From a virus (lineage: Duplodnaviria > Caudoviricetes), in the IMG/VR virus record IMGVR_UViG_3300049919_000118, positions 1,262 to 65,261 of that record: a DNA stretch of 64,000 bases, one strand, 5' to 3'. Below, piece by piece: positions 2,285 through 23,891 of this stretch (position 1 is its first letter; each line of letters opens with the position of its first letter). The notes under the pieces are model-generated. The model did not search any database. It was not told where the DNA came from and worked only from the letters and a program-made list of their open reading frames with translations. Both the position numbers and the translations under genes were made by a program.

Positions 2285-2491
2285 GTAAAATACAAAAAGG
2301 ACCAAATCGCTTACAGGATTGAATACGTAACCTATTGCATTGCTTGCGTAATGAGAAACTACCGTCGCTTGATAAAGACGGAATCTCTCTCGTTGGTGGT
2401 GAACTTCATGACCAAGCGGACTTCAGATGAAATGTCGGAAATGCTTTGGGAGCTAAGGGAACTTAAAGCTAGTCTAAAAAATGAAAGGTAA
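2282..2491 (+). CDS. Hypothetical protein
   Basis: 69-aa ORF after leader copy 3, overlapping the helicase start. Confidence 0.6.
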   Translation: MVKYKKDQIAYRIEYVTYCIACVMRNYRRLIKTESLSLVVNFMTKRTSDEMSEMLWELRELKASLKNER

Positions 2492-3902
2492 ATACAAAAA
2501 GGAACCGGAGGTGGTGAGGAATCCAAAGCTTCCCACCTATCCGCCAAGCGACGAACAAGATGCTTTCTTTTCGTCGCTTTCCCGTGGTGGAAGTCGATTG
2601 CTTTCCGCTTCTCCGGGTAGTGGAAAATCCACCACCCTAACTTGGGCAATGCAGTTAATTGGCCAAGAGAAAGCGGCCATGGTAACGTTCGGAAAAGACA
2701 TTGCGAGGGATATCGAGCCGCGTTGCCCTTCGTGGCTTGACGTTGGTACATGTTGTTCATTTGGGTATAAAGCCCTTGCGAAAAAGCACGGTAGGCTGTT
2801 CCTAAGGTTCAATCTAGTTCAGGATTCCATCATTGAGCTTTTCCCTTATCTAAACCCTTTCGAGGCGGAAGATGGAGATCGCTCCGAGATGTTCCAATCC
2901 ATGAGGGATTCAATCACCCTTATCGACAGATTGAGACTTGGCATGTTTCCCCTATCCGAATCAATCTCGTTGGTGGAAAGCTTGTCACTATCCCCATTCA
3001 ATGAAGTTCTTGGGAACTTAGATAAGATTATTTCTCTTATCCGAAAGGACCCTTCCAAGCCAGACTTTACTGGCATGATTGAGCTTCCTATTTTGCTTGG
3101 CTATGAACTCCCAAGATACGACACAGTTTATACGGATGAGTGTCAGGATTTTTCACCTTTGATGATTAAGTTTATCGAAGGCCTAAGCCCCAAGCGAGTA
3201 ATCGCAGCGGGAGATGAAGATCAAGCGATATACGGGTGGGCAGGGGCTTCCCCCACCGCAATGCAAGACATATCTTCACTTTTCGGAGCGGAGGTCATGC
3301 AGCTTAATGTATGCTACCGTTGCGGCACTGACATAGTTGCCAAGGCAAAGGAGGTGGTCGATAAGATCATTCCCTTTTCCGGTAACGGCAAGGGCGTTGT
3401 CGAGACGGTCAATAGCATTGATCTATCTATGCCAGATGGCTCAATGATCCTTTCCCGTCGGAATGCTAGGCTTGTCGCACCGTGCCTCAAGCTTATACGA
3501 AATGGCCGCAAGGCTATCATCAAAGGGCGAGATATTGGGGAGCAGATGATCCAATCTATCGGCAAACCCAAGAGCCTAGATGATCTCGTTGCCAAGTTCT
3601 CCAACCCGAAGAAAGGGCGAGAAGATGAGGCTGAATGCATCATTGAGTTTGCAAATAACTCCCCTTCCGTCACTGAGGTGATTGACAAGATCAAGGCGAT
3701 CTTCTCAGATAGCACGAAAGGTATCATCTGCTCTTCCATTCACCGTGCTAAGGGTAAGGAGGCTTCCCATATTACCATAGTTGACTACTCCAACGTCAGG
3801 ATGAAGAGAGATGGTATGTCTGAACTTGATAAGCATCAAGAGCGATGCCTTGAGTTTGTTGCTCTTACTCGACCTAAGGATAAGCTATCCCTAATCCCGT
3901 GA
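2481..3902 (+). CDS. UvrD/Rep-like SF1 DNA helicase
   Basis: Walker A PGSGKST, DECQD, GDEDQAIYGW, CYRC, SIHRAKGKE and VALTR motifs. Confidence 0.92.
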   Translation: MKGKYKKEPEVVRNPKLPTYPPSDEQDAFFSSLSRGGSRLLSASPGSGKSTTLTWAMQLIGQEKAAMVTFGKDIARDIEPRCPSWLDVGTCCSFGYKALAKKHGRLFLRFNLVQDSIIELFPYLNPFEAEDGDRSEMFQSMRDSITLIDRLRLGMFPLSESISLVESLSLSPFNEVLGNLDKIISLIRKDPSKPDFTGMIELPILLGYELPRYDTVYTDECQDFSPLMIKFIEGLSPKRVIAAGDEDQAIYGWAGASPTAMQDISSLFGAEVMQLNVCYRCGTDIVAKAKEVVDKIIPFSGNGKGVVETVNSIDLSMPDGSMILSRRNARLVAPCLKLIRNGRKAIIKGRDIGEQMIQSIGKPKSLDDLVAKFSNPKKGREDEAECIIEFANNSPSVTEVIDKIKAIFSDSTKGIICSSIHRAKGKEASHITIVDYSNVRMKRDGMSELDKHQERCLEFVALTRPKDKLSLIP

Positions 3903-7557: not shown

Positions 7558-7969
7558 GACTCAACTCAGTGAATTTGCCGATGATAACGAGCTTACCAAG
7601 GCTGAAGCGTCACGAAAGTGGCTGAACGAATTATCAGGCTTGATTGAAGTGGACCTCAAGTTCATTGAGGTTATCTCCCCAAGGGAATATAACTTCATGA
7701 CTGACACTTTGATTGCTGAGATTGATCCTGCTGATTTGCATAAGATGATGAGGGAGGTTTCAGTGCCGGTCCTTGAGGGCGTTCTTGATAAGAACTTCAC
7801 ACCTCGAAGTGGATTCGTTCCATTCTTCTCCAATGACATTGAAGATTGGATTGGTATGGATATCAATGAATTGGATGATAACGAGGCGATGATATTCATT
7901 GAGGCATACATCGAAGAGCTTGACCTCACCGATGATGTTCGAGAAATTGAATACGAATTAACCTCTTGA
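7520..7969 (+). CDS. Acidic conserved phage early protein
   Basis: FPGFYET, SPREYNFMTD and FTPRSGFVPFFSND motifs; very acidic. Confidence 0.75.
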   Translation: MKTAIPLFPGFYETQLSEFADDNELTKAEASRKWLNELSGLIEVDLKFIEVISPREYNFMTDTLIAEIDPADLHKMMREVSVPVLEGVLDKNFTPRSGFVPFFSNDIEDWIGMDINELDDNEAMIFIEAYIEELDLTDDVREIEYELTS

Positions 7970-8236
7970 CAAATAAGATTATCTATGCTCCTCGAATGTG
8001 AGGCGGCCATCCCTACCATAGAGAAGGCTTGGCGATACAAGCCAAGCCTGAGCAATCCTCGTGCGATTAAACGATGGTTGCCAATAATTAACTTTGTTAA
8101 TTTCAGTCGCCTTGCGACTAATAGCTATCGAAACACGCCTCGCCTTCCAAGAAGCGGAAATACCAAGACTTGCTTGGCGAGGCATTGCGTTTAAAAATCT
8201 AACTGAAATACTTCAAACATCTATCAGAAATCTATC

Positions 8237-9390: not shown

Positions 9391-9840
9391 ATGACAGCAA
9401 CAGTATTAAAAAGAAACGGTGATAAGATTCAAGTTGAACTACCATACTCATCATGGGAGGGTCATGAGCCATACGCAGCAGGCGTATTCATAAAATCAAT
9501 ATACATAGGAAAGATTGCAAAGAGGTGTATCATAAGGCTGTATTCCACATGGGGTAATGGTAAGGGTGAATGCAAAGGTGAATACTACTCTCTCATAGAA
9601 AGCCAGCATGAGCTTGAGGGACTTGCTAAGAACTTCCCTAAGGTTGGCTGGCAGATGGAAAAGCTTGGCATGATTAGAACCCGTGAACAGACGGCTAGAG
9701 ACAATGCCCTTCAAGACTTAAAGCTTGAGGCTGCAACGGGAGGATCGAACCTCAGCGTCATAGTGTGCGAGTTCCTTACAGCCATAGGTCACGCCGATGT
9801 TGCCAACCTATACGCAGATTGCCTGCTGAATCATAAATAA
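9391..9840 (+). CDS. Hypothetical protein
   Basis: ATG after A-rich leader aacaaacaaa. Confidence 0.7.
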   Translation: MTATVLKRNGDKIQVELPYSSWEGHEPYAAGVFIKSIYIGKIAKRCIIRLYSTWGNGKGECKGEYYSLIESQHELEGLAKNFPKVGWQMEKLGMIRTREQTARDNALQDLKLEAATGGSNLSVIVCEFLTAIGHADVANLYADCLLNHK

Positions 9841-9935
9841 TATTATTTAATTCCAAACCGCCAAACGACTATGGAAACTTCGACACACGCCGCCCCGCCC
9901 GCTGTGGTGATCGTCTTTTTCGACATCTTACTATT

Positions 9936-10262
9936 ATGATAACCACAGGAGATAAAGTAACACCGATCAAAGCCACTTGGATGAGGCTTATGGGGGGCGA
10001 GCCCACCGATCATGCAGTCAACCACCCGGATGGATCGCCCCAGCTTGGACACGTTTACTTGGTTACAGGCACCGCGCACCCAAGCGGCGGCGAGCCGGGG
10101 ATATTCTTGGCCGGGTGCCGGAGTATAGGGACACGAGGTCAAGAAATCTCGTTTGTAGCCAGAGCGTTTCGCAAAGTGGTGCCTCGCACCGAGCGAATCA
10201 AGAAGAGCTTAGGGATTCCCCTGTCGAACACTGAGCCCATCCGCGCAGGAAAAAATCTATGA
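9936..10262 (+). CDS. Cassette ORF, hypothetical
   Basis: Lies between a degenerate R box (TTTcgac 9918) and gtcgAAC 10223-10229. Confidence 0.7.
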   Translation: MITTGDKVTPIKATWMRLMGGEPTDHAVNHPDGSPQLGHVYLVTGTAHPSGGEPGIFLAGCRSIGTRGQEISFVARAFRKVVPRTERIKKSLGIPLSNTEPIRAGKNL

Positions 10263-10323
10263 AACCAAACAACATCGAGAACACACAGGCTGGCAGCGAT
10301 TGCTCAGGAGTGTCTTGTTGTGC
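10223..10323 (-). other. attC site (chimeric arms) containing ATG 10259
   Basis: gtcgAAC...gagtgtcttGTTgtgc; GTTgtgc is complementary to the next gcacAAC (10543-10549). Confidence 0.7.
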
Positions 10324-10606
10324 CTCTTCTAGGCCGCGACTCCGTTGCACCGAAAAATGGTCGAATGGCTTCTACATCACCTACAAAGGGCATCGAGCCG
10401 TCATCGAGAGAGACAGCGATAAATCTCCATGGGCGTTCCTCGTGATGGCTCCCGACGGAGGTATACTTGCAGATGGATACACTAAGCGTCCGATGTCGAT
10501 GCAGGAAGCTATCATCCACGCGCTGACCAGTGCATGTCTCTTGCACAACGCCAATGTGAAGGCATCCGTCCCGATGACGCGCTCCGATACTCTCAAACAT
10601 CAATAA
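10259..10606 (+). CDS. Cassette ORF, hypothetical; N-terminus encoded by attC
   Basis: Starts inside attC; C-terminus NANVKAS reads through the next attC half-site. Confidence 0.7.
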   Translation: MKPNNIENTQAGSDCSGVSCCASSRPRLRCTEKWSNGFYITYKGHRAVIERDSDKSPWAFLVMAPDGGILADGYTKRPMSMQEAIIHALTSACLLHNANVKASVPMTRSDTLKHQ

Positions 10607-10611
10607 TCACC

Positions 10612-10821
10612 ATGGAAACCGACGAACAAAAAATACACTACGCGCTCAATCTTTGGGCGAACTACATTGAAACCGGAAATATCGTGCTTTGTGCGCTAGA
10701 TGCACAAAGGCAGGGAGAAAAGGTGAGAGTGTTGAGCGTCTCGCAAATGAAGATGGTCATCCGGCTGCGGGAGCTAGCGCAGATGGCGGCGACCGGTAAA
10801 ATCTCCGTGCAGAACGTCTAG
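10612..10821 (+). CDS. Cassette ORF, hypothetical
   Basis: METDEQK..; ends AAC-GTC-TAG in the next attC. Confidence 0.7.
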   Translation: METDEQKIHYALNLWANYIETGNIVLCALDAQRQGEKVRVLSVSQMKMVIRLRELAQMAATGKISVQNV

Positions 10822-10878
10822 CTATGGCATCCTCAAACTCACCGGCTGTATCCGGTTGGGTCTAGCGCCTTGTTCGCT
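10809..10878 (-). other. attC site (chimeric)
   Basis: gcagAACgtctagctatgg..ggtctagcgccttGTTcgct; GTTcgct matches agcgAAC 11282-11288. Confidence 0.75.
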
Positions 10879-10943
10879 TTCTTAATTTTCTTTGGGCGCA
10901 ACCTGCCCTTGAGTGGTTGCTGGCCGGTGGCCGTTAAAAAAAT

Positions 10944-11294
10944 ATGAATACGATTACGATACCATGCAAAACAGGGGAAATCTCTGACGGCTACCATACA
11001 TTTGACGAACTTTACGACCACCGATGCACGCTATTCCTCGCACTCATGAAATCGCATCCTGAGATGTCATGGATTAGCACAACACACCACGATGGAAGTG
11101 AATGGGAGGGATGGTTTATAGCCGGAATGCGTCTTCCCACGAAAGATGTGACATACCACCTGCCATCCGAAATGTGGGTATCTGCATTGGCAACTGGAGC
11201 AGACGTGTTGGCATGTGGGTTAGAGTGGGATGGTCACACATCAGCGGATGTGGTGCAGCGCATTAAAGCCTGGGTATCCCAAGCGAACGTCTAG
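10944..11294 (+). CDS. WDGH-motif phage protein (cassette)
   Basis: SDGYHTFDELYDHR, WFIAG, TYHLP and EWDGHT motifs. Confidence 0.8.
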   Translation: MNTITIPCKTGEISDGYHTFDELYDHRCTLFLALMKSHPEMSWISTTHHDGSEWEGWFIAGMRLPTKDVTYHLPSEMWVSALATGADVLACGLEWDGHTSADVVQRIKAWVSQANV

Positions 11295-11410
11295 CTCTGG
11301 CATCCCAACCAAATACGACCATGACACACTCATACGATAATCCAGAGCCGGAAACCGCACCCCAAGAAGAGACTAGCGGGACTCTGTTGAAGCCCACCGC
11401 CCTGTTAGCG
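11282..11410 (-). other. attC site containing ATG 11321
   Basis: agcgAACgtctagctctgg...cgccctGTTagcg. Confidence 0.6.
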
Positions 11411-11563
11411 ATTTTGAAGAAGTATCGCTGCCAGCACACATGCGAAAAGGGCGGAGCCGGCTCCCGCCTGGTGGACGTTTTAACGCCGCCAGATGAGGAA
11501 AACATCAGTCTCGGGGAGGATGAGCTTTATCTGCTTGCCGACTTCATCGCTGGAGAAATGTGA
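11321..11563 (+). CDS. Cassette ORF, hypothetical
   Basis: N-terminus MTHSYDNPEPE is shared with ORF 14230. Confidence 0.65.
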   Translation: MTHSYDNPEPETAPQEETSGTLLKPTALLAILKKYRCQHTCEKGGAGSRLVDVLTPPDEENISLGEDELYLLADFIAGEM

Positions 11564-11641
11564 AGGTTTACGCTCATTCTATGGTGTAAACCTTCACGAT
11601 AAAAAATAATATTATTCCTCACATCGAGAAACAACAAAATG
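11558..11641 (+). repeat. 84-bp direct repeat, copy 1 (hairpin + TAATATTA + translation start)
   Basis: Identical to 14584-14667: atgtgaaggtttac..gtaaaccttcacgataaaaaataatattattcctcacatcgagaaacaacaaaatg. Confidence 0.9.
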
Positions 11642-11995
11642 GAAACAAATACAAATACCAAGGCGGCGGAAACCGTCCAAACTACGAGCAATCCGGCGGT
11701 TGCTCAGGAGCGCCTTGTTCGTCGTTCTTCGACGGCGTGCAAACATGGAGATTACGGATGCGGGCAATACTACGACTGCGGGAAATGCGCCCGTGAGAAG
11801 CGAGCCGCAGCCTACAAGCGACTCACGCCGAAACAGAAAGCGTATGATCGCATGATTGATCCGCTCGGAGCTTATCACACGGACTTCCCGCAAGGATGCT
11901 CCTGCCACATCTGCGCCCCGTGCTCCTTCTGCGTCTTGATGACCGAAGAAGAGCCCGACGCCTACGCGAAGTCTTTTTCTTCGACGAACGCCTAG
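11639..11995 (+). CDS. Cys-rich cassette ORF (GCSCHICAPCSFC motif)
   Basis: N-terminus runs through an attC half-site (GTTcgtcg 11717) that matches cgacgAAC 11982-11989. Confidence 0.75.
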   Translation: METNTNTKAAETVQTTSNPAVAQERLVRRSSTACKHGDYGCGQYYDCGKCAREKRAAAYKRLTPKQKAYDRMIDPLGAYHTDFPQGCSCHICAPCSFCVLMTEEEPDAYAKSFSSTNA

Positions 11996-12112
11996 CTCTG
12001 GCACCGCCGGAGACGGCACGAAAAATCATGAAACTACAATCAAATACCAAGGCGGCGGAAACCGTCCAAACTACGAGCAATCCGGCGGTTGCTCAGGAGC
12101 GTCTTGTTAGGC
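11983..12112 (-). other. Intact attC site containing ATG 12028
   Basis: Arms gctctggcaccgccgga / tccggcggttgctcaggagc pair with three extrahelical bases; 5-nt spacers to AAC and GTT. Confidence 0.88.
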
Positions 12113-12279
12113 GTCTTCGGGATTATCACCGGCAGCTCGACACTCACCAGAAAAAAAGAGAAGCGGGGATGCTGATCCTTGAAGCTGCTGATGAGATCGA
12201 CCGCTTGGAATCCGCCGACCCACAACTCTACAACACCAAAAAACTTTATGAAACCAGAAAACTTGAACGAAGAAAGTGA
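12028..12279 (+). CDS. Cassette ORF, hypothetical
   Basis: MKLQSNTKAAETVQTTSNPAVAQERLVRR, same attC-encoded leader as ORF 11639. Confidence 0.7.
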   Translation: MKLQSNTKAAETVQTTSNPAVAQERLVRRLRDYHRQLDTHQKKREAGMLILEAADEIDRLESADPQLYNTKKLYETRKLERRK

Positions 12280-12310
12280 AGGCGGATTGTCCATCCGCGG
12301 TTTGTTGGGC
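12195..12310 (-). other. Degenerate attC (AAC box lost) containing ATG 12248
   Basis: tggaatccgcc / ggcggattgtcca stem; ends tttGTTgggc. Confidence 0.55.
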
Positions 12311-12460
12311 GATCTTGATTCCGAGGTCGAGCAAGCACGCGAAAGGCAAAAAAGCATCATCCGAGAAATCGAAATCAACCAAGCGAGGCAGCAAGTCGTC
12401 GGGGAATACCGAGTCAAATTCATGGACTTGCGGGACAAGCTCCGAGCTAAAGTCTCTTAG
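12248..12460 (+). CDS. Cassette ORF, coiled-coil hypothetical
   Basis: MKPENLNEE.. Confidence 0.7.
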   Translation: MKPENLNEESEGGLSIRGLLGDLDSEVEQARERQKSIIREIEINQARQQVVGEYRVKFMDLRDKLRAKVS

Positions 12461-12589
12461 GCTAACGCCTAGCTCATCCGTGGAAGGAAATAATCATCAA
12501 AACTTTATGTCACAAGAAAACGAAATCGAAGCAGAAAAACTCAGCCCAACAATAGACTTCCTTCCATCGGATGAGACGCCTTGTTGTGT
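12460..12589 (-). other. attC site containing ATG 12507
   Basis: ggctAAC..ctcatccgtggaaggaa / ttccttccatcggatgag..cttGTTgtgt. Confidence 0.82.
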
Positions 12590-12827
12590 CTCCCGATTCT
12601 TTCGGATGCAACTCGTCAAGTTCCCGATCGGGGGTGGGGCATACCAGCAATGCACGTTCATCGGTGTGGATTCTCACGGCGTGGCTACCGTCAAAACGCA
12701 GGGCGGCAGATACCGCACGGTGTGGGACTGCAATTTGTATTCTGTGCATAACGCCAATGTGGACCTGCCGGATACAGCCGCGCAGGACTCCGCTTCAAAA
12801 TCAAACTCACCGGCTGTATCCGGTTAG
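12507..12827 (+). CDS. Cassette ORF, small SH3-like hypothetical; C-terminus encoded by attC
   Basis: Ends NANVDLPDTAAQDSASKSNSPAVSG. Confidence 0.65.
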   Translation: MSQENEIEAEKLSPTIDFLPSDETPCCVSRFFRMQLVKFPIGGGAYQQCTFIGVDSHGVATVKTQGGRYRTVWDCNLYSVHNANVDLPDTAAQDSASKSNSPAVSG

Positions 12828-12846
12828 GTCTCACGACTTGTTAGCC
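12746..12846 (-). other. Intact attC site
   Basis: gtggacctgccggatacagccg / cggctgtatccggttaggtctcac with bulges; GTTagcc matches the next ggctAAC. Confidence 0.88.
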
Positions 12847-12857
12847 TCTTTGAAATT

Positions 12858-13238
12858 ATGAACGACCTTGAATGCCCATACTGTGATGCCCCAAACGAAG
12901 TCTGCCACGACGATGGCCAAGGCTACGAAGAGGGGAAAGCCCATGAAATGACCTGCGGCGACTGCGGGAAAAACTTCGTCTTCCAAACGTCGATCAGCTT
13001 CTACTACTCACCCGAAAAAGCGGACTGCCTGAATGGCTCGCCGCACCGATTCGGGGAATGGCGGAAGCTGTGGCTCAACGCCAAGATGGAGGAAATTCAG
13101 GATCGCCGCTGCAAGGACTGCGACCACACCGAGCGCCGGACGGTTCCAAATTCTCGGGCTAACGCCAATGTGGACCTGCCGGATACAGCCGTGCATGACT
13201 CTGATTCAAAACCAAACAATCCGGCTGTATCCGGTTAG
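12858..13238 (+). CDS. Zinc-ribbon cassette protein
   Basis: CPYC, CGDC and CKDC motifs. Confidence 0.8.
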   Translation: MNDLECPYCDAPNEVCHDDGQGYEEGKAHEMTCGDCGKNFVFQTSISFYYSPEKADCLNGSPHRFGEWRKLWLNAKMEEIQDRRCKDCDHTERRTVPNSRANANVDLPDTAVHDSDSKPNNPAVSG

Positions 13239-13257
13239 GTCTCACGACTTGCTCATC
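13157..13257 (-). other. attC site (GTT mutated to GCT), near-copy of the 12746 site
   Basis: Same arms as 12746-12846. Confidence 0.8.
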
Positions 13258-13262
13258 CTATT

Positions 13263-13604
13263 ATGAATTACCAAAAGACAGCGAAAAAAATGGAAACCGA
13301 AACTATCGACCGTCTATTCCTGGAACTCTCACAAGTCACCCAGGCTACCACCGAAAAAGAAATCCGACTCAAGGAGCAAAATCAAATGCTATCAAAGCAC
13401 GTCGTCAGCCTAACGAAAGAAAGGGAAGACCTCCTAGACCTGCTGACATCTGCCAGAGCTATCGCAATCCGTCACGGGGAAGATACTGCGTGGGAGCACT
13501 TCGGCGAACGCTTGAGGCTTGCTGGCGCTGGTTCTGTGACGCCAAAGACGTTCCGAGTTCTGCCGAACGACGCAGAAAACAGCTTGGATTCACAGAACGC
13601 CTAG
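13263..13604 (+). CDS. Cassette ORF, hypothetical
   Basis: TIDRLFLELSQVT motif; ends AAC-GCC-TAG. Confidence 0.75.
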   Translation: MNYQKTAKKMETETIDRLFLELSQVTQATTEKEIRLKEQNQMLSKHVVSLTKEREDLLDLLTSARAIAIRHGEDTAWEHFGERLRLAGAGSVTPKTFRVLPNDAENSLDSQNA

Positions 13605-13650
13605 CTGATCCACGGCGCTTGTCGCCGTGGGGTCTAGCGCCTTATTCTGA
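13592..13650 (-). other. Short attC site (GTT mutated to ATT)
   Basis: gctgatccacggcg-cttgt-cgccgtggggtctagc; ATTctga matches the next tcagAAC. Confidence 0.8.
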
Positions 13651-13655
13651 CTCTT

Positions 13656-13976
13656 ATGACACACTCCGAAAAACTAAAACGAATCGAAACACTCATGGCT
13701 TCGCCGGATGTGATCGAACTGGATGCAATCTTCGCCGAGGTGGAAGCCTTTGAAAAGTTGGCATACCCGATCCCACTGCCCACCATCCCAGAAGCGATGA
13801 AGTCCCGCCGCGAGCAAATGGGGGAGAATCAACGCGAAATCTCGATGCGGGCAGGCATGTCGCTGAACCGATGGAAACACCTCGAAAGCGGCAAGAACGA
13901 ACCATCCATCGCTGACGCTAGAAAGCTCTACTCAGTCGGAATCTCCGCCTATGTAATTCTTGGTCAGAACGCCTAG
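13656..13976 (+). CDS. HigA-like XRE HTH protein (orphan antitoxin-like) in a cassette
   Basis: ELDAIFAEVEAFEKLAYPIPLPTIPEAMKSRREQMG followed by an HTH. Confidence 0.75.
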   Translation: MTHSEKLKRIETLMASPDVIELDAIFAEVEAFEKLAYPIPLPTIPEAMKSRREQMGENQREISMRAGMSLNRWKHLESGKNEPSIADARKLYSVGISAYVILGQNA

Positions 13977-14009
13977 CTATGGAATCCACACCACTTACCA
14001 AATACGACC

Positions 14010-14189
14010 ATGAACCAAGACACACTACAGCAAATCGCCCAAGTAGATGAAAAACTGACGATCCTCCGCGAAAGCTGGATGGACTCCAAGACCGAGAAGA
14101 GATCGACGTGGATGGCCAAGATCGACGACGCGCTCGATGAGCGCTCAAAGATGATGAAAATCCGCGACGGGAAACCTGCCTCTGCATAA
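14010..14189 (+). CDS. Cassette ORF, 59 aa (below the ORF-track cutoff)
   Basis: MNQDTLQQIAQVDEKL..; stop TAA overlaps the next AAC box. Confidence 0.65.
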   Translation: MNQDTLQQIAQVDEKLTILRESWMDSKTEKRSTWMAKIDDALDERSKMMKIRDGKPASA

Positions 14190-14314
14190 CGTCTAGCGAT
14201 GGCATCGCTGCCACTTACCACATACAACTATGCCACACTCATACGATAATCCGGAGCCGGAAGCCGAACCTCAACAGGAGACTGGTGGGGATTGCCAGAC
14301 ACGACCTGTGCGAC
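14184..14314 (-). other. Degenerate attC (GTT mutated to GTG) containing ATG 14230
   Basis: gcatAACgtctagcgatggcatc..gattgccagacacgacctGTGcgac. Confidence 0.6.
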
Positions 14315-14520
14315 TCTTCCGCAATGATAACGAATTCGAGGGCGGTCAATACACCGCGGAAGGAATCGAGCTGAATCTCCCATGTGGGAAACTCCGCATC
14401 GGCAGAATGATCATGCTGCCACCGACTAAGCTGCCGTCCATCGCCTACATCGGGCGGCGGAACACATGGACATGGACAATCCGCGTGTGGACAGTGGCCA
14501 TTTCATTTAAGCCGAACTGA
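14230..14520 (+). CDS. Cassette ORF, hypothetical
   Basis: Ends gccgAAC-TGA. Confidence 0.65.
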   Translation: MPHSYDNPEPEAEPQQETGGDCQTRPVRLFRNDNEFEGGQYTAEGIELNLPCGKLRIGRMIMLPPTKLPSIAYIGRRNTWTWTIRVWTVAISFKPN

Positions 14521-14583
14521 CAACTGGATCGACGCCTACCACTGGACGCCGGATTCTGAGGCTAGCTAGTGGATGGCCTACAC

Positions 14584-14667
14584 ATGTGAAGGTTTACGCT
14601 CATTCTATGGTGTAAACCTTCACGATAAAAAATAATATTATTCCTCACATCGAGAAACAACAAAATG
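14584..14667 (+). repeat. 84-bp direct repeat, copy 2
   Basis: Identical to 11558-11641. Confidence 0.9.
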
Positions 14668-15150
14668 AATATAAAAACAGCAAAGAGAAACAGGCATAGC
14701 ACATACAGGTTCATCGTAACCAGTGTTGTGTCCGAGGGATCTGGGAACTACAAAAACAATATGACTGTCGATACACCGGAAGCCGTTGTCGATTTCTGGA
14801 ACAAGGAAATAAAAAGCCAGCCGTCGTTCGAGAACGACAAGGAGAACCTAGTCGTGGTTCTACTCAATGCTAGGCTCAGAGCTTTTGCTTGGAACATTGT
14901 TTCAATCGGAGCTTTGTCGGAAACGACTGCTCATCCGAGAGAGATCCTTAGGCCTTGCATAGCTGGTGCCGCTCACTCATTCGTGTTGATTCACAACCAT
15001 CCGTCTGGATTCCCTGAGCCAAGCTGGGCTGACGAGCTTCTGACCAAGAGAATTAAGGAGGCATCTGAACTAATGCAGATAAAAATCGTAGATCATATCA
15101 TCATTGGTAACGATTCACACTATTCATTCAGAGAGTCAGGATTGCTATGA
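14665..15150 (+). CDS. radC: RadC-like JAB domain protein
   Basis: HPREI, HNHPSG..PS.AD, DHIIIG and YSFRESGLL motifs. Confidence 0.9.
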   Translation: MNIKTAKRNRHSTYRFIVTSVVSEGSGNYKNNMTVDTPEAVVDFWNKEIKSQPSFENDKENLVVVLLNARLRAFAWNIVSIGALSETTAHPREILRPCIAGAAHSFVLIHNHPSGFPEPSWADELLTKRIKEASELMQIKIVDHIIIGNDSHYSFRESGLL

Positions 15151-16526
15151 AGGAAATAAACTTGTTTGGCTTTCAGGGAGAATTCAAGGAGCGTATAGCA
15201 ACAGCCATGCGTAAGCATAAGCGCGTCCTTGGCGTAGCAGCCACGGGTTTTGGTAAGGGCGTGGTCATTGCTGACATAGCGAAGAGCGCGATTATCAAAG
15301 GGTCGGTGACATGTATTGCAGTTCACAGGATCGAGATCTTCAAACAAGTCTTCAACAACTTGGTCTCTTATGGTATAACTCCAAGCCTCATAGCGGCGGG
15401 ATCAAAGATTTCACCCGGCTCCAAGTGCTATCTCGCTATGGTTGACACTCTCAACTCTAGGATAAAAAAGGGAATGATAGAGATGCTTAATATTAATTTC
15501 TTTATCATGGATGAGGCGCACTATGCATCTCACTTCAAAGTTATAAATGGAGTTGACTGCTTTGTTCTTGGCCTTACCGCCTCACCCAAGAGCACTGGAA
15601 ATCCAGAGCTTAACAAATACTTTGGCGTCATGGTGGAAGGTAAGCCAGTCAAAGAGCTGATACAGATTGGAAGGCTTGTGAGGGCTAGAACTTTCAGTGT
15701 GGACTGGGACTTCTCAAAAGTTAAACTCAACTCCAAAGGAACTGAGTTTGATGAGAAGTCTCTCAAGGAAGAATTCCAAAAGCCAATGCTTTGGGATGGT
15801 GCCGTGAACTCATACCTCAAGCACGCCAATGGATTACAAGCGTTGTGCTTCTCAGCCAATATAGAGAGATCTCTTTCAGTGACGGAGCAATTCAATACGC
15901 ATGGAATAAAGGCGGCTCATGTTAATGGCTCAACAAAGGAATCAGAAAGGGATGCGATCTTTGATAGGTATAGGCGCGGTGACGTACAGGTGATATGCAA
16001 TGTCGGCATCGCGACAACGGGGACTGATTTGCCTAATACGAAGTGTGTGATACTAGACCTAGCAACAATGTCCATCGTCAAGTATGTCCAAATGGTTGGT
16101 CGTGGAGCTAGGTGCGCGCCTGACAAAGACCACTTCATCGTCATAGATATGGGGAGAAATTACTCTAGGTTTGGGGAGTTCGGGGACTATATAGATTGGA
16201 AGGCAATCTTTGATAAGCCGTCCCTTGCTGCTGTTAAAAGAGAGAAAAGAAACAAGAGGGAGTGCAGTAATTGCGGGGTTGTGATGGAGTTCCATACCTC
16301 GAAATGTCCATACTGCGATCATGAAACAGCAAGGGCGAAGCTTGACAGTATGGCTGAAAAGCAAATGACAGCTGAAGAGCTTATGAATTACAGGCATAAG
16401 ATGCTGCCTGACAGGCTGAAAGTTCCAATCTCAAGCATGAGTTACAGTATGCTAAGGGAATACGCCGCTGCCGTTGGTCATAACTACCGATGGGCAAACA
16501 TCGTCCATGCAAAAAGAAGGCATTGA
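15147..16526 (+). CDS. SF2 DEAH helicase with C-terminal Zn finger (RadD/YejH-like)
   Basis: ATGFGKG, DEAH, LTASP, QMVGRGAR and CSNC..CPYC motifs. Confidence 0.92.
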   Translation: MKEINLFGFQGEFKERIATAMRKHKRVLGVAATGFGKGVVIADIAKSAIIKGSVTCIAVHRIEIFKQVFNNLVSYGITPSLIAAGSKISPGSKCYLAMVDTLNSRIKKGMIEMLNINFFIMDEAHYASHFKVINGVDCFVLGLTASPKSTGNPELNKYFGVMVEGKPVKELIQIGRLVRARTFSVDWDFSKVKLNSKGTEFDEKSLKEEFQKPMLWDGAVNSYLKHANGLQALCFSANIERSLSVTEQFNTHGIKAAHVNGSTKESERDAIFDRYRRGDVQVICNVGIATTGTDLPNTKCVILDLATMSIVKYVQMVGRGARCAPDKDHFIVIDMGRNYSRFGEFGDYIDWKAIFDKPSLAAVKREKRNKRECSNCGVVMEFHTSKCPYCDHETARAKLDSMAEKQMTAEELMNYRHKMLPDRLKVPISSMSYSMLREYAAAVGHNYRWANIVHAKRRH

Positions 16527-16555
16527 CCAAATCAAACCAAGGAATATCATAAGTT

Positions 16556-16774
16556 ATGATAACAATCCAACCGACTGACATAGTTAATTCATTCGCTTCG
16601 CCAGTCCTATTCAATAGGACTGGTAATATCAGGGATAAGATTTCCCAATGCTCAAGAGAAGAGCTTCTCGATTACTCAATCTATCTTGTTTGCCACCTTG
16701 AGAAGTATCAAGCTTACTCGGAGAGGACAAACAGAGATCTTGAAGACATCTTAGGATGGAACGAGAAGTTGTGA
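16556..16774 (+). CDS. Hypothetical protein
   Basis: 72-aa ORF just after TTGACC-16nt-TATCAT. Confidence 0.6.
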   Translation: MITIQPTDIVNSFASPVLFNRTGNIRDKISQCSREELLDYSIYLVCHLEKYQAYSERTNRDLEDILGWNEKL

Positions 16775-16835
16775 ACATGGATAGGCGAAAATAATATTAA
16801 CCATAAAAGGGCGTGAACCTTCACCCCCAAATAAA

Positions 16836-17480
16836 ATGAAAGCAGAAGACTCATACTTTATATGTGAGGTTGAAGTCTATCCAGTGATGGATGGAAGATT
16901 CATAATGTATCCTCACGTTATGAATAATCGCAAATACTACAAGGCTGGACCAATAGAAACTAGGTATGTAATACGCAGACCTCTAGGCATTGCTAATGAA
17001 CATGTGTATAAGAGCCAGATACAAACAACGTGCTGCATGTTCGAGTCTAAACTAGCGCCAACGAATAGATACATTAGGACCATAGATGCTTCATACTTTA
17101 AGTATTACGATGACGCTGAAGAGGTGTTAAATAATATTATTCTTTTCATACTATGGATAAAGGAGATAGCGGTGACGAGGAAGTGGGAAAAACAGTTCGT
17201 GAAGATAGCGAAAGAGAACGAATTCCTAGTGAGGGACACGGACGATTCTCCAGAGGAAGCATTGATTCGAGCATCTCAAATTGGATTGAAAGTAAAGAGG
17301 CGAAGCGAACAGGATCAAAGCGTAAACATCCTAGATATAAAGGACTGGCTAAAGTCAGCGGAAAGCAAAGAAAAAGAAATTCAGAATACACTGAAGCCAA
17401 AAGAAGTTTTCTCTCAAGAGAAGAAAACAGAGAGTGCTCCATCTGCAAAACTAGAGACGGGCTTTCTATTCACCATGTAG
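16836..17480 (+). CDS. Hypothetical protein (3' half overlaps the next gene)
   Basis: 214-aa ORF. Confidence 0.55.
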   Translation: MKAEDSYFICEVEVYPVMDGRFIMYPHVMNNRKYYKAGPIETRYVIRRPLGIANEHVYKSQIQTTCCMFESKLAPTNRYIRTIDASYFKYYDDAEEVLNNIILFILWIKEIAVTRKWEKQFVKIAKENEFLVRDTDDSPEEALIRASQIGLKVKRRSEQDQSVNILDIKDWLKSAESKEKEIQNTLKPKEVFSQEKKTESAPSAKLETGFLFTM

Positions 17481-17650
17481 GTAAAAGACTTGGCGAGATA
17501 GCCAATGAAGAATTATTCATGACCCTATGTATGACAAGTTCATACCTAGATAATAAGCACCCACACCTGAATCATTCCCATTCGGGTGGCTGTCATGGAT
17601 TTGTTGAAGGGAATAAACAATGGGCAAGAACAAATGGATACCTCAAATAA
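17153..17650 (+). CDS. HNH-like nuclease (start uncertain)
   Basis: CSIC..IHH..LC..GCH..WARTNGYL. Confidence 0.7.
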   Translation: MDKGDSGDEEVGKTVREDSERERIPSEGHGRFSRGSIDSSISNWIESKEAKRTGSKRKHPRYKGLAKVSGKQRKRNSEYTEAKRSFLSREENRECSICKTRDGLSIHHVGKRLGEIANEELFMTLCMTSSYLDNKHPHLNHSHSGGCHGFVEGNKQWARTNGYLK

Positions 17651-18173
17651 AATAAAAAAACACTTCAATAAAAACCCTGAAGACGTGAATGCCGTGATGA
17701 AGGCTTATCACGCCTATCACGTAGACCACTTCAGATCACACCGCAAAGCACACAATTTCCTATCATCATCAAGGATAAGTGAATGTGAATGGTGCGGAAG
17801 GACAAGGGAAGATGTGAGATGGGACACCCTTCCGCCGGAATGCCAGATGCGACCTGCTTACGCAGACATTCCAATAGGTGATGCGCTCACTGAAGAGGAA
17901 GCCAAGGCTCACGCTGTATATGATAGAGCAAAGGGCGATGTCCCAAGGCTTGTAAAGAAAATGGGCATGAGCGGCAACACGCTAGCCAAGCTTCATCACA
18001 CTCATGGCTATGATCCTGAAACTGTAAGCGGTATAGTGGATGTCCCTCAAGACGTCATGGAGGAATACCACTCCAGCATGGAGATCGAGCGCGATACATC
18101 ACGCAAGGCAATAGTTCGTGAAGTCGTAACCTGTGTATTTGACGAGACTGCAAAACAAGCTGAAGATAAATAA
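17634..18173 (+). CDS. Hypothetical protein with AlaRS-like C-terminal helical segment
   Basis: GNTLAKLHHTHGYDPE..MEEYHSSMEIERDTSR. Confidence 0.65.
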   Translation: MDTSNKIKKHFNKNPEDVNAVMKAYHAYHVDHFRSHRKAHNFLSSSRISECEWCGRTREDVRWDTLPPECQMRPAYADIPIGDALTEEEAKAHAVYDRAKGDVPRLVKKMGMSGNTLAKLHHTHGYDPETVSGIVDVPQDVMEEYHSSMEIERDTSRKAIVREVVTCVFDETAKQAEDK

Positions 18174-18193
18174 AATTATTTCTGACATGATCC
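18155..18193 (+). repeat. Direct repeat, copy 1 (copy 2 at 19328-19366)
   Basis: acaagctgaagataaataaaattatttc-nnnn-ATGatcc. Confidence 0.8.
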
Positions 18194-18393
18194 ACGTAAT
18201 ACCAATCAATGACAAAATAACCCACACCGCAGACTGTGAATGCTGCAATGCTTACCTTGATCCCGATGGATTCTGGATACACCATTCCGCCGATAAGCGG
18301 GAGCAATACGAGAGGCGGGGTGAAAAAGGAGAGCCGTGGCAACTATTTGCCGAAGACGATGCCACGGGATTACTCGTCCCCATTGATGGCTAA
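18187..18393 (+). CDS. Small phage protein (HVIPIND..H..CxC..HH motif)
   Basis: Ends ggcTAAc at the attC. Confidence 0.75.
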   Translation: MIHVIPINDKITHTADCECCNAYLDPDGFWIHHSADKREQYERRGEKGEPWQLFAEDDATGLLVPIDG

Positions 18394-18488
18394 CGTCAAA
18401 GAGCACCCAACCACATGAGCGAAAACCAAGCAAAAATTCAGAACGAAGCAACCCGCTCATGTGGGTTGGGTGGCTCGTCTTGTTCGCT
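18388..18488 (-). other. Intact attC site containing the MTase start
   Basis: gagcacccaaccacatgagcg / cgctcatgtgggttgggtggctc with 2 extrahelical bases; GTTcgct matches agcgAAC 19271-19277. Confidence 0.88.
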
Positions 18489-19260
18489 TTTGCGCGTCTT
18501 GGTGGCTTGTGAGTATTCAGGCACGGTGAGAGATGCTTTTGTCGCACTTGGGCATGATGCTATGAGCTGCGATATCCTGCCAACGGATAGCCCCGGCAAT
18601 CACTACCAAGGAGACGTTCGGGACGTAATGAATGATGGATGGGATATGATGATCTGCCATCCACCATGCACCTACCTGAGTGTGTCGGGTATCCACTGGA
18701 ACAATCGCGGGCGCGGATGGGGAGAAACCGAAAAAGCGCTAGACTTCGTGCGGCTGCTGATGGGCGCGAACATCCCGCGCATAGCGCTGGAAAACCCGGT
18801 ATCGATCATCTCCAGCAAGATCCGCAAACCGGATCAAATCATCCAGCCTCACCAATACGGCCATGACGCCAGCAAGGCTACATGCCTATGGCTCAAGAAT
18901 CTCCCAAAGCTCACAGCAACAGAATCAATCCAGCCCAGGATCGTGAATGGGAAGACCCGTTGGGCCAATCAGACGGACGGCGGGCAAAACAAACTCCCGC
19001 CCAGCAAAGACCGATGGAAACTCAGATCAACGACGTACAAAGGCATTGCGGAAGCCATGGCCAATCAGTGGAGCGCATACGCATTGTTGCAGCGTGCGAA
19101 CTCCCAGAGTGTGAATGCTGCGGGGAACCTTGGTGCCCTATTTGCTTGGAACACTATAGCGACTGCGAATGCGTCGGACCATGCAACGACGAAGATGAAG
19201 GATGGCAACTCGAAGAACGAGGCGGAATCCTCTACGGAATACGAGCTTGCACACCGATGA
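18415..19260 (+). CDS. Phage-type C5 DNA cytosine methyltransferase (cassette-borne)
   Basis: VLVACEYSG, SCD, HPPCT, ENP, KATCLWL and IAEAMANQW motifs. Confidence 0.88.
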   Translation: MSENQAKIQNEATRSCGLGGSSCSLLRVLVACEYSGTVRDAFVALGHDAMSCDILPTDSPGNHYQGDVRDVMNDGWDMMICHPPCTYLSVSGIHWNNRGRGWGETEKALDFVRLLMGANIPRIALENPVSIISSKIRKPDQIIQPHQYGHDASKATCLWLKNLPKLTATESIQPRIVNGKTRWANQTDGGQNKLPPSKDRWKLRSTTYKGIAEAMANQWSAYALLQRANSQSVNAAGNLGALFAWNTIATANASDHATTKMKDGNSKNEAESSTEYELAHR

Positions 19261-20839: not shown

Positions 20840-22201
20840 ATGAATAAAATTACTATCGAAAACGAAGCAGGCGAAACAGCAACCTTGACCATCAAGGAGT
20901 ATTACACACACCTAGTTAAGGAGTGTAACATCGAAGACTTTGAAGCTGAAGAGAATCAGGTCGTCCCGGCTATTAAGGTGGCAAAGCATATTGTCTCAGC
21001 GATTATTGAAGGTCGTGATATTGACGCTGCAATCAAGTCCGCTTACGTTGACGCTTGCGTGACAGCTGAAGAAGACATCGCATCATCCAAGGATGATAGC
21101 GAGATTAAAGCCGCTGAAGCAAAGGAGGCTAAAAAAGCCAAAGAAAAAGAAAAGGATGATAAGGATGCTGCCGACGATGCAAAACGAAAGCTGGCAATCG
21201 CAACCAGAGATGAATTCGTCGCAAGCGTGGCATCTGGAGCGAGTGAGGCAACGTCATCCTTTGCCGAAGAACTCAAAGAGCTTGCTCTCGATCTACCAGA
21301 TGGAGTGTCGTTATCACAAGACGGCTCAGGGTTTGGTCTGAAGTTTGCTGACGGCTCATCCAAGGAAGTTGTGGGAAAAGCTCTTGGTTATCTCATCCAA
21401 AAAGAAATGAACTCGTCGTTCATTGGCAATCAGATATCATTTTGGATCGGGGATACCATCTCAAATGCAGTCGAGCGCGGTATCTATGGCACGGCGAAGG
21501 AAGCCTCGGAGCACATCTCTTCCGTCTTGTCTGAAAGCCTTGGTCGAAACATTGAAGCTAGTTCCCTCCCGCAATATCAACGCATGGCAGAGCGCACCCC
21601 GATTGCATTGCGCAATCCAAAGGCAGACCCAACTGCTTACCTCGCCATCTCTTCAATGGCCATGCCGAAAAAGGCTAGCAATGAAACCGATGATGGGTTC
21701 AAGGCTCGGACTGAAGAGTTCATTAAGGACCGCACAGAGATCCAAGCCAAGCTTGGTAATGGTGAAGTCTCTAAGCGTAAGGATGTGCTTCCGCTTGTTG
21801 ACTCGGCGCTAATCAAGCACGGCTTACGCCAAGCTCCATCCACCGAAGTGACGGTTAGTCTAACGGAAAACCTGAAAAGTTTCTTCCATGCCAGCTTTGG
21901 ATTGGATGATCTTCTCAACGTCCACTCTGAGGGTATCGCGCAGTATGGGCACGGCGGCCAAGTTTACAGCTTAACCAAGGATCAACTTGAAACAATTCGT
22001 GATGAGGCATTCGACAATCTTGTTCTTACTTACTACTCTGACAAAGCCAGAGGAATCAAACCTGAAGATTACATCCGTGGGTTTACGAACAAGACAACCA
22101 AGGTGGAATCCAAAGACGATGACGGCAAGGTGACGAGCAAGGATGCAGTAACGAAAGCTAAAGTTTACCCAAAAGCATTCTTCACTCCTGAAGTCGCGTA
22201 A
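20840..22201 (+). CDS. Hypothetical protein (453 aa)
   Basis: Long ORF with a charged coiled-coil segment. Confidence 0.85.
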   Translation: MNKITIENEAGETATLTIKEYYTHLVKECNIEDFEAEENQVVPAIKVAKHIVSAIIEGRDIDAAIKSAYVDACVTAEEDIASSKDDSEIKAAEAKEAKKAKEKEKDDKDAADDAKRKLAIATRDEFVASVASGASEATSSFAEELKELALDLPDGVSLSQDGSGFGLKFADGSSKEVVGKALGYLIQKEMNSSFIGNQISFWIGDTISNAVERGIYGTAKEASEHISSVLSESLGRNIEASSLPQYQRMAERTPIALRNPKADPTAYLAISSMAMPKKASNETDDGFKARTEEFIKDRTEIQAKLGNGEVSKRKDVLPLVDSALIKHGLRQAPSTEVTVSLTENLKSFFHASFGLDDLLNVHSEGIAQYGHGGQVYSLTKDQLETIRDEAFDNLVLTYYSDKARGIKPEDYIRGFTNKTTKVESKDDDGKVTSKDAVTKAKVYPKAFFTPEVA

Positions 22202-23036: not shown

Positions 23037-23891
23037 ATGAGCAGAAGAGATAGTAATATAAAATCAAAAGTCATACTTGATTCGGTTAATAGGCACAACA
23101 ATAGACTGACGACAATGGTTGTGACTATGCCGAAGATCATTCTAGCTGAGTTTAATACTCACAGAATGTTCTCACGGAACACCTCTAGTAGCAGGGCCAT
23201 GCCAACCAAAAAGGTTAGGGATAGCGTCGTGAATAATACATTCATCCCGTCATCAATAGGAGCGAACTGCAAGGGAATGCAAAGCAATGTTGATCTCAAT
23301 GAAGATATGAGGCTTCGCTTCCTTGACAACTGGATGCTCGCAGCAAATACCATGGCGTCAATTCACGAAGTCATGGAGAAGATCGGGGCGCACAAGCAGG
23401 TATGTAACAGAATCCTTGAGCCTTGGATGTATTGCACAGTCATTGTTACGGCTACTCATTGGGCGAACTTCTTTGCCCAAAGATGCCATAAGGATGCAGA
23501 TCCATCAATGATGGCAACAGCATTCAAAATGCTGAAGGCTTACGTCGAATCAACACCCGTAAGAAGAAGCGCTCACATCCCATTCATTGAGTCAATACCT
23601 TCATGGATGCCGGGAGAGGATAAGATTAAAGTGTCAGTAGCAAGGTGTGCTAGAGTGTCATACACGAAGCATGATTATGAGCATGATATAGACGGTGATA
23701 TTGAGCTGTATGATAAGCTCATAGCAAATAAGCACATGAGTCCATGCGAGCACGTAGCGAAAGAATTCATCAATGATGTATTCATTGGTAACTTCAGGGG
23801 GTGGGTTCAACATCGAAAGACTATTGATGGTGAGTGCATAAATAATATTAACTACGAAGAACTACTAGATTCAAAACCAGAATGGGTGTGA
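23037..23891 (+). CDS. thyX: FAD-dependent thymidylate synthase
   Basis: AEFNTHRMFSRNTSSSRA, NRILEP, ARCARVSY and HMSPCEH motifs. Confidence 0.9.
   Translation: MSRRDSNIKSKVILDSVNRHNNRLTTMVVTMPKIILAEFNTHRMFSRNTSSSRAMPTKKVRDSVVNNTFIPSSIGANCKGMQSNVDLNEDMRLRFLDNWMLAANTMASIHEVMEKIGAHKQVCNRILEPWMYCTVIVTATHWANFFAQRCHKDADPSMMATAFKMLKAYVESTPVRRSAHIPFIESIPSWMPGEDKIKVSVARCARVSYTKHDYEHDIDGDIELYDKLIANKHMSPCEHVAKEFINDVFIGNFRGWVQHRKTIDGECINNINYEELLDSKPEWV

Follow-up and report, generated by a model that had tools for sequence, protein, structure and literature searches.

We analyzed a stretch of 64,000 nucleotides (nt) of a phage (record IMGVR_UViG_3300049919_000118, positions 1,262 to 65,261), here referred to as the window; all coordinates given below refer to it. 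Between 10 and 14 kb and once more at 18.4 kb the + strand of the window carries repeats which are integron attC sites of the family used by Verrucomicrobiota integrons. According to the explanation that we prefer (probability about 0.72), they form an attC array without integrase, i.e. a cluster of attC sites lacking integron integrases (CALIN), with inverted cassettes. The genes would lie on the bottom strand of the sites, each starting in the loop of its own attC and stopping in the next site. An earlier note on this DNA had pointed to the start codons within the repeats. Its observation was confirmed and extends well beyond this phage, and its interpretation was supported in part.

Repeat sites in the window

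A covariance model, here named R1, was built from 37 sites (3 from the window, 30 from viral contigs and 4 from metagenome-assembled genomes, MAGs) and run on the whole window with filters off. It gave 11 matches at E<0.01, three of them to sites of the training set and eight to sites outside it. All were on the + strand and located in 10219-14318 or 18384-18492, and the next-best match within the 64 kb had an E-value of 0.25. Beyond the 11 attC-type sites two half-sites (11652-11719 and 13968-14012) and two remnants were found. The 5' box AACGYCTAG occurred seven times on the + strand within 3.4 kb (10813-14188), and the remainder of the window had a single copy, on the - strand. A variant of the box, AACGCCAATGTG, was present at 12750 and 13161. 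The 3' boxes of the repeats terminate in CTTGTT, and most of the sites fold as single strands from AAC to GTT. The sites, the related modules and the open reading frames (ORFs) of the array are listed below; all are on the + strand.

10227..10319, +: attC site S1; 5' arm without the 5-nt spacer; ATG 10259 in the loop; ORF 10259..10606; R1 30.1 bits, E 1.8e-6
10547..10606, +: decayed remnant of the 5' half of an S7/S8-type attC (AACGCCAATGTG box); encodes the C-terminus of ORF 10259; motif match, repeat D20
10813..10874, +: attC site S2; short loop without ATG; gives the TAG to ORF 10612..10821, next ORF from 10944; R1 34.9 bits, training set
11286..11406, +: attC site S3; 3' arm disrupted; ATG 11321 in the loop; gives the TAG to ORF 10944..11294; R1 27.2 bits, E 1.2e-5
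11558..11653, +: module of phage hairpin, AATAATATTATT motif, leader and ATG, fused to an attC 3' half; 96-nt direct repeat, 96% identical to 14584-14679
11652..11719, +: half-site, 3' half of an S5-type attC; residues 5-27 of ORF 11639..11995; 87-nt repeat 90% identical to 12028-12114; R1 E 0.85
11987..12108, +: attC site S5, intact; gives the TAG to ORF 11639; ATG 12028 in the loop; R1 94.4 bits, training set; hairpin from AAC to GTT
12199..12306, +: attC site S5b; AAC changed to GAC, TAG lost; entered by ORF 12028..12279; ATG 12248 in the loop; R1 26.5 bits, E 1.8e-5
12464..12585, +: attC site S6, intact; ATG 12507 in the loop; R1 59.5 bits, training set; fold
12750..12842, +: attC site S7; 5' box without TAG; next ORF from 12858; R1 25.5 bits, E 3.6e-5; stems of 12 bp and 5 bp
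13161..13253, +: attC site S8; copy of S7 that has GCT in place of GTT; C-terminus of ORF 12858..13238; R1 17 bits, E 0.0098; 102-nt repeat, 88% identical
13596..13646, +: attC site S9, short, GTT changed to ATT; gives the TAG to ORF 13263..13604; R1 34.3 bits
13968..14012, +: half-site of 5' arm, leader and ATG 14010, without 3' arm; gives the TAG to ORF 13656..13976; 48-nt repeat 77% identical to 14185-14232; missed by R1
14188..14310, +: attC site S11, GTT changed to GTG; ATG 14230 in the loop; R1 49 bits, E 7e-12
14584..14679, +: second copy of the phage hairpin, motif, leader and ATG module; closes the array and provides the start of the RadC-like gene 14665..15150 (RadC Pfam 4.3e-36)
18392..18484, +: attC site S12, solitary, intact; ATG 18415 in the upper stem, ahead of the DNA methyltransferase ORF 18415..19260; R1 31.8 bits, E 5.6e-7
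10259..14520, +: 13 small cassette ORFs with starts at 10259, 10612, 10944, 11321, 11639, 12028, 12248, 12507, 12858, 13263, 13656, 14010 and 14230

Start codons within the sites

The earlier note had placed seven ATGs inside the loops of attC sites. All seven lie within R1 matches, and six of them (10259, 11321, 12028, 12248, 12507 and 14230) are indeed in loops; the seventh, ATG 18415, is located in the upper stem of S12 (arms 18406-18421 and 18454-18469). ATG 10259 overlaps the TGA of a possible upstream ORF, 9936..10262, in an ATGA arrangement (10256-10262). This possible ORF would read through the 5' arm of S1.

To survey related sites we used 147 R1 matches: 134 of the 141 obtained from loci, 2 further ones and the 11 of the window. 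Seven matches from loci were excluded: five were truncated where the locus ended, one covered the model in part, and one, of full length, lay at the edge of its locus. Identical sequences were collapsed, which left 130 unique sites. The note had made its reading depend on conservation of the in-loop ATGs in homologous attC sites. The in-site ATGs are conserved: in 103 of the 130 sites an ATG starts a frame of 40 or more codons that runs through the 3' arm, namely in 7/11 of the window, 75/93 of the viral records and 21/26 of the MAGs. Among the remaining sites, 25 had short loops with a start 9-150 nt downstream and two were without any start.

The 103 in-site ORFs had a median length of 114 codons and a median leader of 21 residues. 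Their bodies fell into 85 mutually unrelated BLASTP clusters. Relative to GTT, the in-site ATGs used frames 1, 0 and 2 in 52, 38 and 13 sites, respectively. Where the middle extrahelical base is lost the frame shifts, so that one and the same 3' arm yields QERLV at one site and SGASC at another. Furthermore, one protein body (L031/L039 compared with L035) was found behind two different attC sites, with unrelated leader peptides.

The 20 nt located 5' of the loop ATG consisted of 41% A, 32% C, 13% G and 14% T, and a Shine-Dalgarno-like 4-mer was present in just 18 of the 103 sites. The A/C-rich leaders without obvious Shine-Dalgarno sequence that the note had described are thus a feature of the related sites as well. 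From -15 to +5 around the start the predicted unpaired probability was 0.68, compared with 0.29 for either arm.

Stop codons and shared peptide ends

An upstream frame of at least 40 codons ending near the site was found for 98 of the 130 sites. In total, 84 of these ORFs terminated at or beyond the junction at the 5' AAC and 14 before it. The end coincided with the AAC-GYC-TAG position in 39 cases (35 of them TAG), overlapped T-AAC in 10 and was located deeper inside the next site in 35. In the window AAC-GYC-TAG terminates the ORFs ending at 10821, 11294, 11995, 13604 and 13976, so that the supply of many stops by the next site, as proposed before, holds for five ORFs of the window as well as for the 39 of 98 among all sites. 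The window ORF ending at 12460 has its stop four codons earlier in the same frame, and the ORF ending at 14189 uses a TAA overlapping T-AAC. In the window, 21-46 nt separate the loop ATG from the stop of the preceding ORF.

Sites of the S7/S8 type lack the TAG. The upstream ORF therefore reads 26 codons through the site, which results in a common C-terminal tail. Thus, ORF 12507 enters S7 for 26 codons and finds its stop in the 3' arm. Unrelated proteins had been said to share attC-encoded peptides, and in BLASTP the similarity of the paired ORFs was in fact limited to the site-encoded ends: residues 1-29 for 11639 and 12028, residues 1-20 for 11321 and 14230, and the last 25 residues for 12507 and 12858. 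These shared peptides are by-products of a structural constraint on the DNA, since all three frames of one and the same 3' arm are in use and the codons of the loop have no third-position excess of variation.

Possible use of the loop start codons

Ribosomes would start at the loop ATGs according to the explanation preferred here. We infer this use from the sequence; no RNA run is listed for the stretch.

Several further findings weigh against the inverted-cassette explanation. The missing third-position excess means that the leader has no coding signature. The proportion of 103/130 overstates the share in the whole attC family, because R1 was trained on ATG-bearing loops. In locus L064 the ORFs next to two sites beside intI are canonical ones on the top strand, with lengths of 355 and 373 aa. 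Neither TIGR02249 nor PF00589 gave a match in the 65,261 bp of the phage record, i.e. there is neither an integron integrase nor a tyrosine recombinase. Of the 11 window sites, three have lost GTT (13161, 13596 and 14188) and one AAC (12199). Additionally, no copy of any window cassette at 88% identity or more was present in the fetched loci, and mobility was seen in relatives alone. ORFs 12507, 14230 and 11321 have in-frame alternative starts at most seven codons past the site. Finally, an in-frame TTG (18490-18492) directly after S12 aligns with the initiator Met in 10 of 18 homologues of the methyltransferase, for which a start at this TTG is as plausible as at ATG 18415.

The gene behind the solitary site at 18.4 kb encodes a cytosine methyltransferase; its match to phrog_757 spans residues 26-237. 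In 7 of the 18 homologues variable N-terminal extensions of about 14-70 residues precede the point of the TTG, as in the phage gene. Some of these extensions terminate in S-C-S-like residues, as an attC arm would encode.

The alternative that draws on these data accepts the sites as attC but leaves their loop ATGs unused. The true starts (ATG, GTG or TTG) would then be located just past the GTT box, and the loop frame would be a tolerated read-through. The TTG of the methyltransferase, the leader peptides without codon-position signature and the alternative starts, which for ORF 12248 as for the three ORFs above are found at the end of the site or within seven codons of it, are all in line with this view. 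We nevertheless regard it as unlikely. In 103 of 130 sites the ATG has been kept together with a frame of 40 or more codons, and three different frames are used. ORFs 10259, 11639 and 12028 offer no further in-frame start (ATG, GTG or TTG) over the 21-45 codons that follow the site; a downstream start would cost them, in addition to the leader, 41, 45 and 21 residues, respectively, and with these ORF 11639 would be deprived of its Cys-rich part. Moreover, the 25 short-loop sites put their ATG 9-150 nt past the site, so the family marks its starts.

Identity of the repeats

Viral contigs were scanned with a 19-nt pattern from the 5' arm, which gave 51 stretches. A regular-expression census of the viral loci and the window identified 42 elements (35 distinct sequences) with complete architecture, i.e. 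box, stem, long A/C-rich loop, 3' arm and CTTGTT.

An attC site has an R box with AAC and GTT and a length of 57-141 bp. The attC definition in passages of PMC5027507 comprises central spacers of 5-6 nt and two or three extrahelical bases near L'' (G16, optional 20, T23/24) with a 6-bp stem between them. In our alignment of 37 sequences AAC and GTT of the R box (RYYYAAC / GTTRRRY) were invariant in 37/37 relatives; in the window AAC is kept in 10 and GTT in 8 of 11 sites. The central spacers of 5+5 nt were unpaired in 37/37. The 3' arm carried 2-4 extra letters in all 37 sites and exactly three in 26, with extrahelical bases at positions 16, 20 and 24 and T at position 24 in 36/37. Site lengths ranged from 51 to 137 nt with a variable terminal structure. 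In total, 86.9% of the alignment cells were paired, compared with 77% for shuffled 3' partners (none of 500 reached the observed value) and 32-56% for slid partners. The inner L-box helix was paired to 93%, with compensatory changes in 11 of 16 pairs across the 37 sites.

A full-site pattern was also run on one genome per prokaryote species. It gave four matches, all in Verrucomicrobiota MAGs. An IntI above the cut-off of TIGR02249 (NCBIfam) was present in 4/4 of these MAGs and in 0/14 control genomes. R1 matches were found in 9 of 151 sampled Verrucomicrobiota genomes (G004 itself counted). The identification of the repeats as attC sites was thereby borne out by the R box, the spacers, the extrahelical bases, the covarying stems and the neighbouring IntI genes in MAGs. 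A complete integron, with intI and attI beside the array, is absent from the phage and present in the Verrucomicrobiota MAG loci. With its 11 sites and no integrase the phage array is a CALIN, defined in the relevant part of PMC9892861 by at least two attC sites and no nearby intI.

Whole-cassette differences with AAC junctions between two records that bear an IntI-like gene point indirectly to recombination of the family by integron integrase. One contig of a Chthoniobacterales MAG (L059 139-1634) has a cassette whose ATG is inside the loop and which codes for a 142-aa protein that is Cys-rich and Lar-like. This cassette ends 47 nt before the start codon of intI on the same strand, its site being directly upstream of intI along the intI sense strand; it would therefore be transcribed towards intI and not away from it.

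A second alternative takes the elements for an intercistronic RNA element of phages, a coupling or processing hairpin, that resembles attC without being a recombination site. In its favour are the position of the elements on the sense strand, the stop and start that they contain, and their presence in numerous phage records that lack an integrase (IntI above the cut-off in none of 35). However, members of the same family stand beside bona fide IntI genes in 4/4 MAGs, whole cassettes differ with clean AAC junctions, the extrahelical bases fit the published attC definition and the short-loop members contain no start. We consider this explanation very improbable.

Strand and cassette unit

The gene-carrying + strand is, as judged from the sequence, the attC bottom strand. 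This assignment rests on two independent lines, the side of the extrahelical bases and the orientation towards intI. The bottom strand is recognized by extrahelical bases on the arm opposite AAC, with the crossover at AA|C in the 5' box (passages of PMC5027507). The extrahelical bases were opposite the 5' AAC on the + strand in 37/37 sites. In 5/5 MAG loci with both intI and the 3' box, the site was located upstream of intI along its sense strand. This is the canonical geometry of the attC bottom strand.

Shared blocks and indels give the limits of the cassette. Blocks common to otherwise different arrays span from the 5' AAC to the next AAC (361 nt in L003/L052, 324 nt in L009/L021 and 360 nt in L031/L039). 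Two related records bearing IntI-like genes differ by whole cassettes, and the junctions A|B on the one hand and A|X and X|B on the other have only GAACGC in common. By sequence comparison the cassette junction in the relatives is at the 5' AA|C. On the coding strand the cassette is thus composed of C, the remainder of its own attC and the body, followed by ...AA. Therefore each start codon belongs to the attC of its own cassette. The proposal that any inserted cassette receives its start from the site could accordingly not be maintained, since the start is part of what is inserted. As a module of start and stop the site retains one half of the role ascribed to it: the stop AAC-GYC-TAG does come from the next cassette, whose site contributes the split AAC codon, one further codon and TAG, and the start does not come from a neighbouring site. 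All 13 array ORFs are on the bottom strand, so the textbook order of a top-strand ORF followed by attC is not found here.

The reverse assignment, with the + strand as top strand of classical cassettes (gene, then attC) and the start in the site of the preceding cassette, as the earlier note assumed, is hardly tenable: the symmetry of AAC...GTT means that motifs alone cannot fix the orientation and in some public-run contigs the 3' GTT is directly followed by other sequence (11723, 12840/12842), but it is already contradicted by the side of the extrahelical bases, the five MAG loci, and the shared blocks and cassette insertions and deletions bounded by the 5' AAC. In four DNA runs the Logan contigs break off at the attC repeats; different neighbours were joined not only at these positions but also at the 5' AAC (11986, 12746/12750, 13164, 18392), and joins at both ends of a site are expected of any repeat. 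One single contig skips 288 nt, from 12862 to 13151.

A proposed model of the inverted cassettes

According to the inverted-cassette explanation, an attC array of the Verrucomicrobiota type without integrase would sit in a block of + strand genes of the phage. The A/C-rich leader without Shine-Dalgarno sequence and the ATG would be placed in the attC of the cassette itself, in its variable terminal loop. From there the ORF would read out through the arm of L'', spacer and R'', giving a leader of approximately 21 residues, and would then enter the cassette body. Usually it would terminate past the AA|C junction, in the AAC-GYC-TAG of the next attC. Each attC would in this way act as an intercistronic junction with a stop, a distance of 20-45 nt and a start exposed in the loop. 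In the sense transcript a G+C-rich stem, with the preceding stop on its 5' arm, would close a large open loop that presents the start. Coupling to the upstream ORF would be possible, but access to the start would not need it. The hairpin may gate translation, as the note had suggested, but the region of the start is in any case predicted to be unpaired.

Decay and cargo of the phage array

In addition to the lost boxes, site 10227 lacks one spacer and site 11286 has a disrupted 3' arm; about half of the sites are decayed. Since there is also no integrase, an array of captured cassettes (CALIN) undergoing domestication fits the data better than an active expression platform. The cassettes presumably entered the phage by IntI action, and the decayed sites would no longer be recombined.

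The 96-nt phage module (a 13-bp hairpin, the genome-wide AATAATATTATT motif, leader and ATG) is duplicated at 11558-11653 and 14584-14679. At 11558-11653 it replaces the 5' half of one attC and is fused in frame to the 3' half. A hairpin related to the module was also present at 16806-16828.

Pfam matches within the array were WDGH (10944), HTH (13656) and a weak Lar (12858); the other array ORFs matched no family.

The attC family was found in 35 viral records, five of them with an estimated completeness of at least 90%. In G015 (70.6 kb) the sites are again located within a dense block of genes, on its sense strand. In record G029 (46,282 bp; L069 10129-16320) a run of nine attC sites, all on one strand, precedes a PAPS-reductase ORF and the gene of an IntI-like tyrosine recombinase, both on the strand of the sites. 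Among protein families this recombinase matched the integron integrase best, at 194 bits, which does not reach the cut-off of 265. G029, which may be a phage-borne integron, also has genes resembling those of terminase, DnaB and phage integrase. The sister record G011/G037 differs from G029 by whole cassettes. Finally, the viral record G006 (L003; 4,068 bp, classed as having direct terminal repeats) is an attC array from end to end, and the model matches it 8 times within its 4 kb. Its "terminal repeat" is probably an attC repeat, and for this reason G006 may not be a virus.

The phage and its surroundings

The phage record is 65,261 bp in size and has direct terminal repeats at its ends. From 1 to approximately 28 kb the ORFs of at least 150 codons are on the + strand, with 7561..8055 as sole exception. 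The stretch from 10 to 14 kb has a G+C content of 52%, compared with 43-47% on the flanks, and is densely filled with 13 small + strand ORFs that are separated or overlapped by imperfect inverted repeats. All DNA runs containing the window stretch were freshwater or freshwater-sediment metagenomes.

Among the viral contigs searched with the neighbouring helicase 15147..16526 there were no relatives of the phage backbone. Of 10 window proteins tested against PHROGs at E<=1e-5, only the helicase 2481..3902 and the methyltransferase were matched; the seven large - strand ORFs and 20840..22201 (453 aa, + strand) had no match. The ORF of 3153 aa at 29305-38766 (-) had no Pfam match. The phage is very divergent. 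The idea of an N4-like phage, which was based only on its giant ORF, terminal repeats and size, was dropped.

Outside the array, the + strand block encodes a ThyX-type thymidylate synthase (23037-23891; Thy1, 8e-15) and the RadC-like protein, of the JAB type (14665-15150; 4e-36). Scans of the window for promoters and terminators were no better than shuffles (11 compared with 9.9 and 16 compared with 10.6, respectively). The palindromic motif AAATAATATTATT occurred 59 times at no more than one mismatch, on both strands and over the whole window, where shuffles predict 0.13. Examples are 9835-9847, 11604-11616, 14630-14642, 17129-17141, 36099-36111 and 63494-63506. It is often located just 5' of genes and may be a promoter or operator of the phage itself.

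Relation to known systems

The textbook cassette is a promoterless gene on the attC top strand which is expressed from the cassette promoter Pc, with the attC behind the gene. The sites of the present family resemble the attC sites with three extrahelical bases, such as Vibrio VCR2 and attCoxa2, in the AAC/GTT R'/R'' boxes, the extrahelical bases 16/20/24 opposite AAC, the unpaired central spacers of 5-6 nt, the variable terminal structure, the lengths (51-137 nt), the arrays of single orientation and the crossover at AA|C. Unlike classical cassettes, those of the phage family have the gene on the bottom strand and the attC at the 5' end of their own ORF, where it would hold the translation start, and most of their ORFs are without an own stop inside the cassette. 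Repeated hairpin modules between small accessory genes that promote gene shuffling are likewise found in T4-type phages as promoter-stem-loop cassettes. These act with promoters and homologous recombination, without the site architecture of a tyrosine recombinase or encoded N-termini.

Verrucomicrobia are among the phyla with integrons according to part of PMC4889954. Both virulent and temperate phages have been reported to carry CALINs and integrons, and methyltransferases are among the genes of the cassettes (Qi et al. 2023, PMC9892861). The abstract and section 3.4 of that study report 17 CALINs, each with at least two attC sites, in cultured phages of other phyla and suggest acquisition from the host. 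As far as these parts go, the present array is similar in being an integrase-less attC cluster with a methyltransferase cassette and differs by its 11 sites in one phage and by a family found in at least 35 viral records. Starts inside attC or bottom-strand genes are not described in the same two parts.

Translation signals within recombination sites are known from attI1. ORF-11, -17 and -18 of this site carry such signals, and ORF-11 takes its TAG from the core site of the cassette that is inserted (passages of PMC8876359). The same passages describe short ORFs inside attC that relieve hairpin blocks of translation, and translational coupling was proposed. The similarity to ORF-11 and ORF-18, as described there, lies in a recombination site that bears translation signals and in a TAG from the core site of the adjoining cassette. 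These are short, non-functional top-strand peptides which aid the downstream gene, whereas in the present family the site would start the cassette protein itself, on the bottom strand. In the open full-text literature, i.e. outside supplements and subscription journals, we found no description of cassette genes starting inside their own attC on the bottom strand. Hence attC arrays in phages are already published, while bottom-strand starts inside attC were not found in print.

Implications

In this attC family, in phages as well as in Verrucomicrobiota integrons, the gene is found on the recombined strand and its translation start would be built into the site. If the starts are used, the recombination hairpin would also serve ribosomes as a landing site, in bacteria that rarely rely on Shine-Dalgarno sequences. 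The expression of cassettes would then be independent of Pc and of the position within the array, and phages could trade ready-to-translate accessory genes via the integron machinery. The family also offers a handle on two open questions, the birth of cassettes and the expression of cassettes without translation signals.

As a tentative and rather speculative extension, Verrucomicrobiota phages and the integrons of their hosts might share a pool of 'inside-out' cassettes with a loop start lacking a Shine-Dalgarno sequence and a borrowed stop. Such cassettes would be translated wherever they land in a sense transcript and would be silent, antisense to Pc, in the host integron. An IntI of the host or of a phage (as in G029) would exchange accessory or anti-defence genes, e.g. 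for methyltransferases, Lar-like and helix-turn-helix (HTH) proteins. If such a pool exists, any sequence fused behind such an attC would be a route to new cassettes and new proteins.

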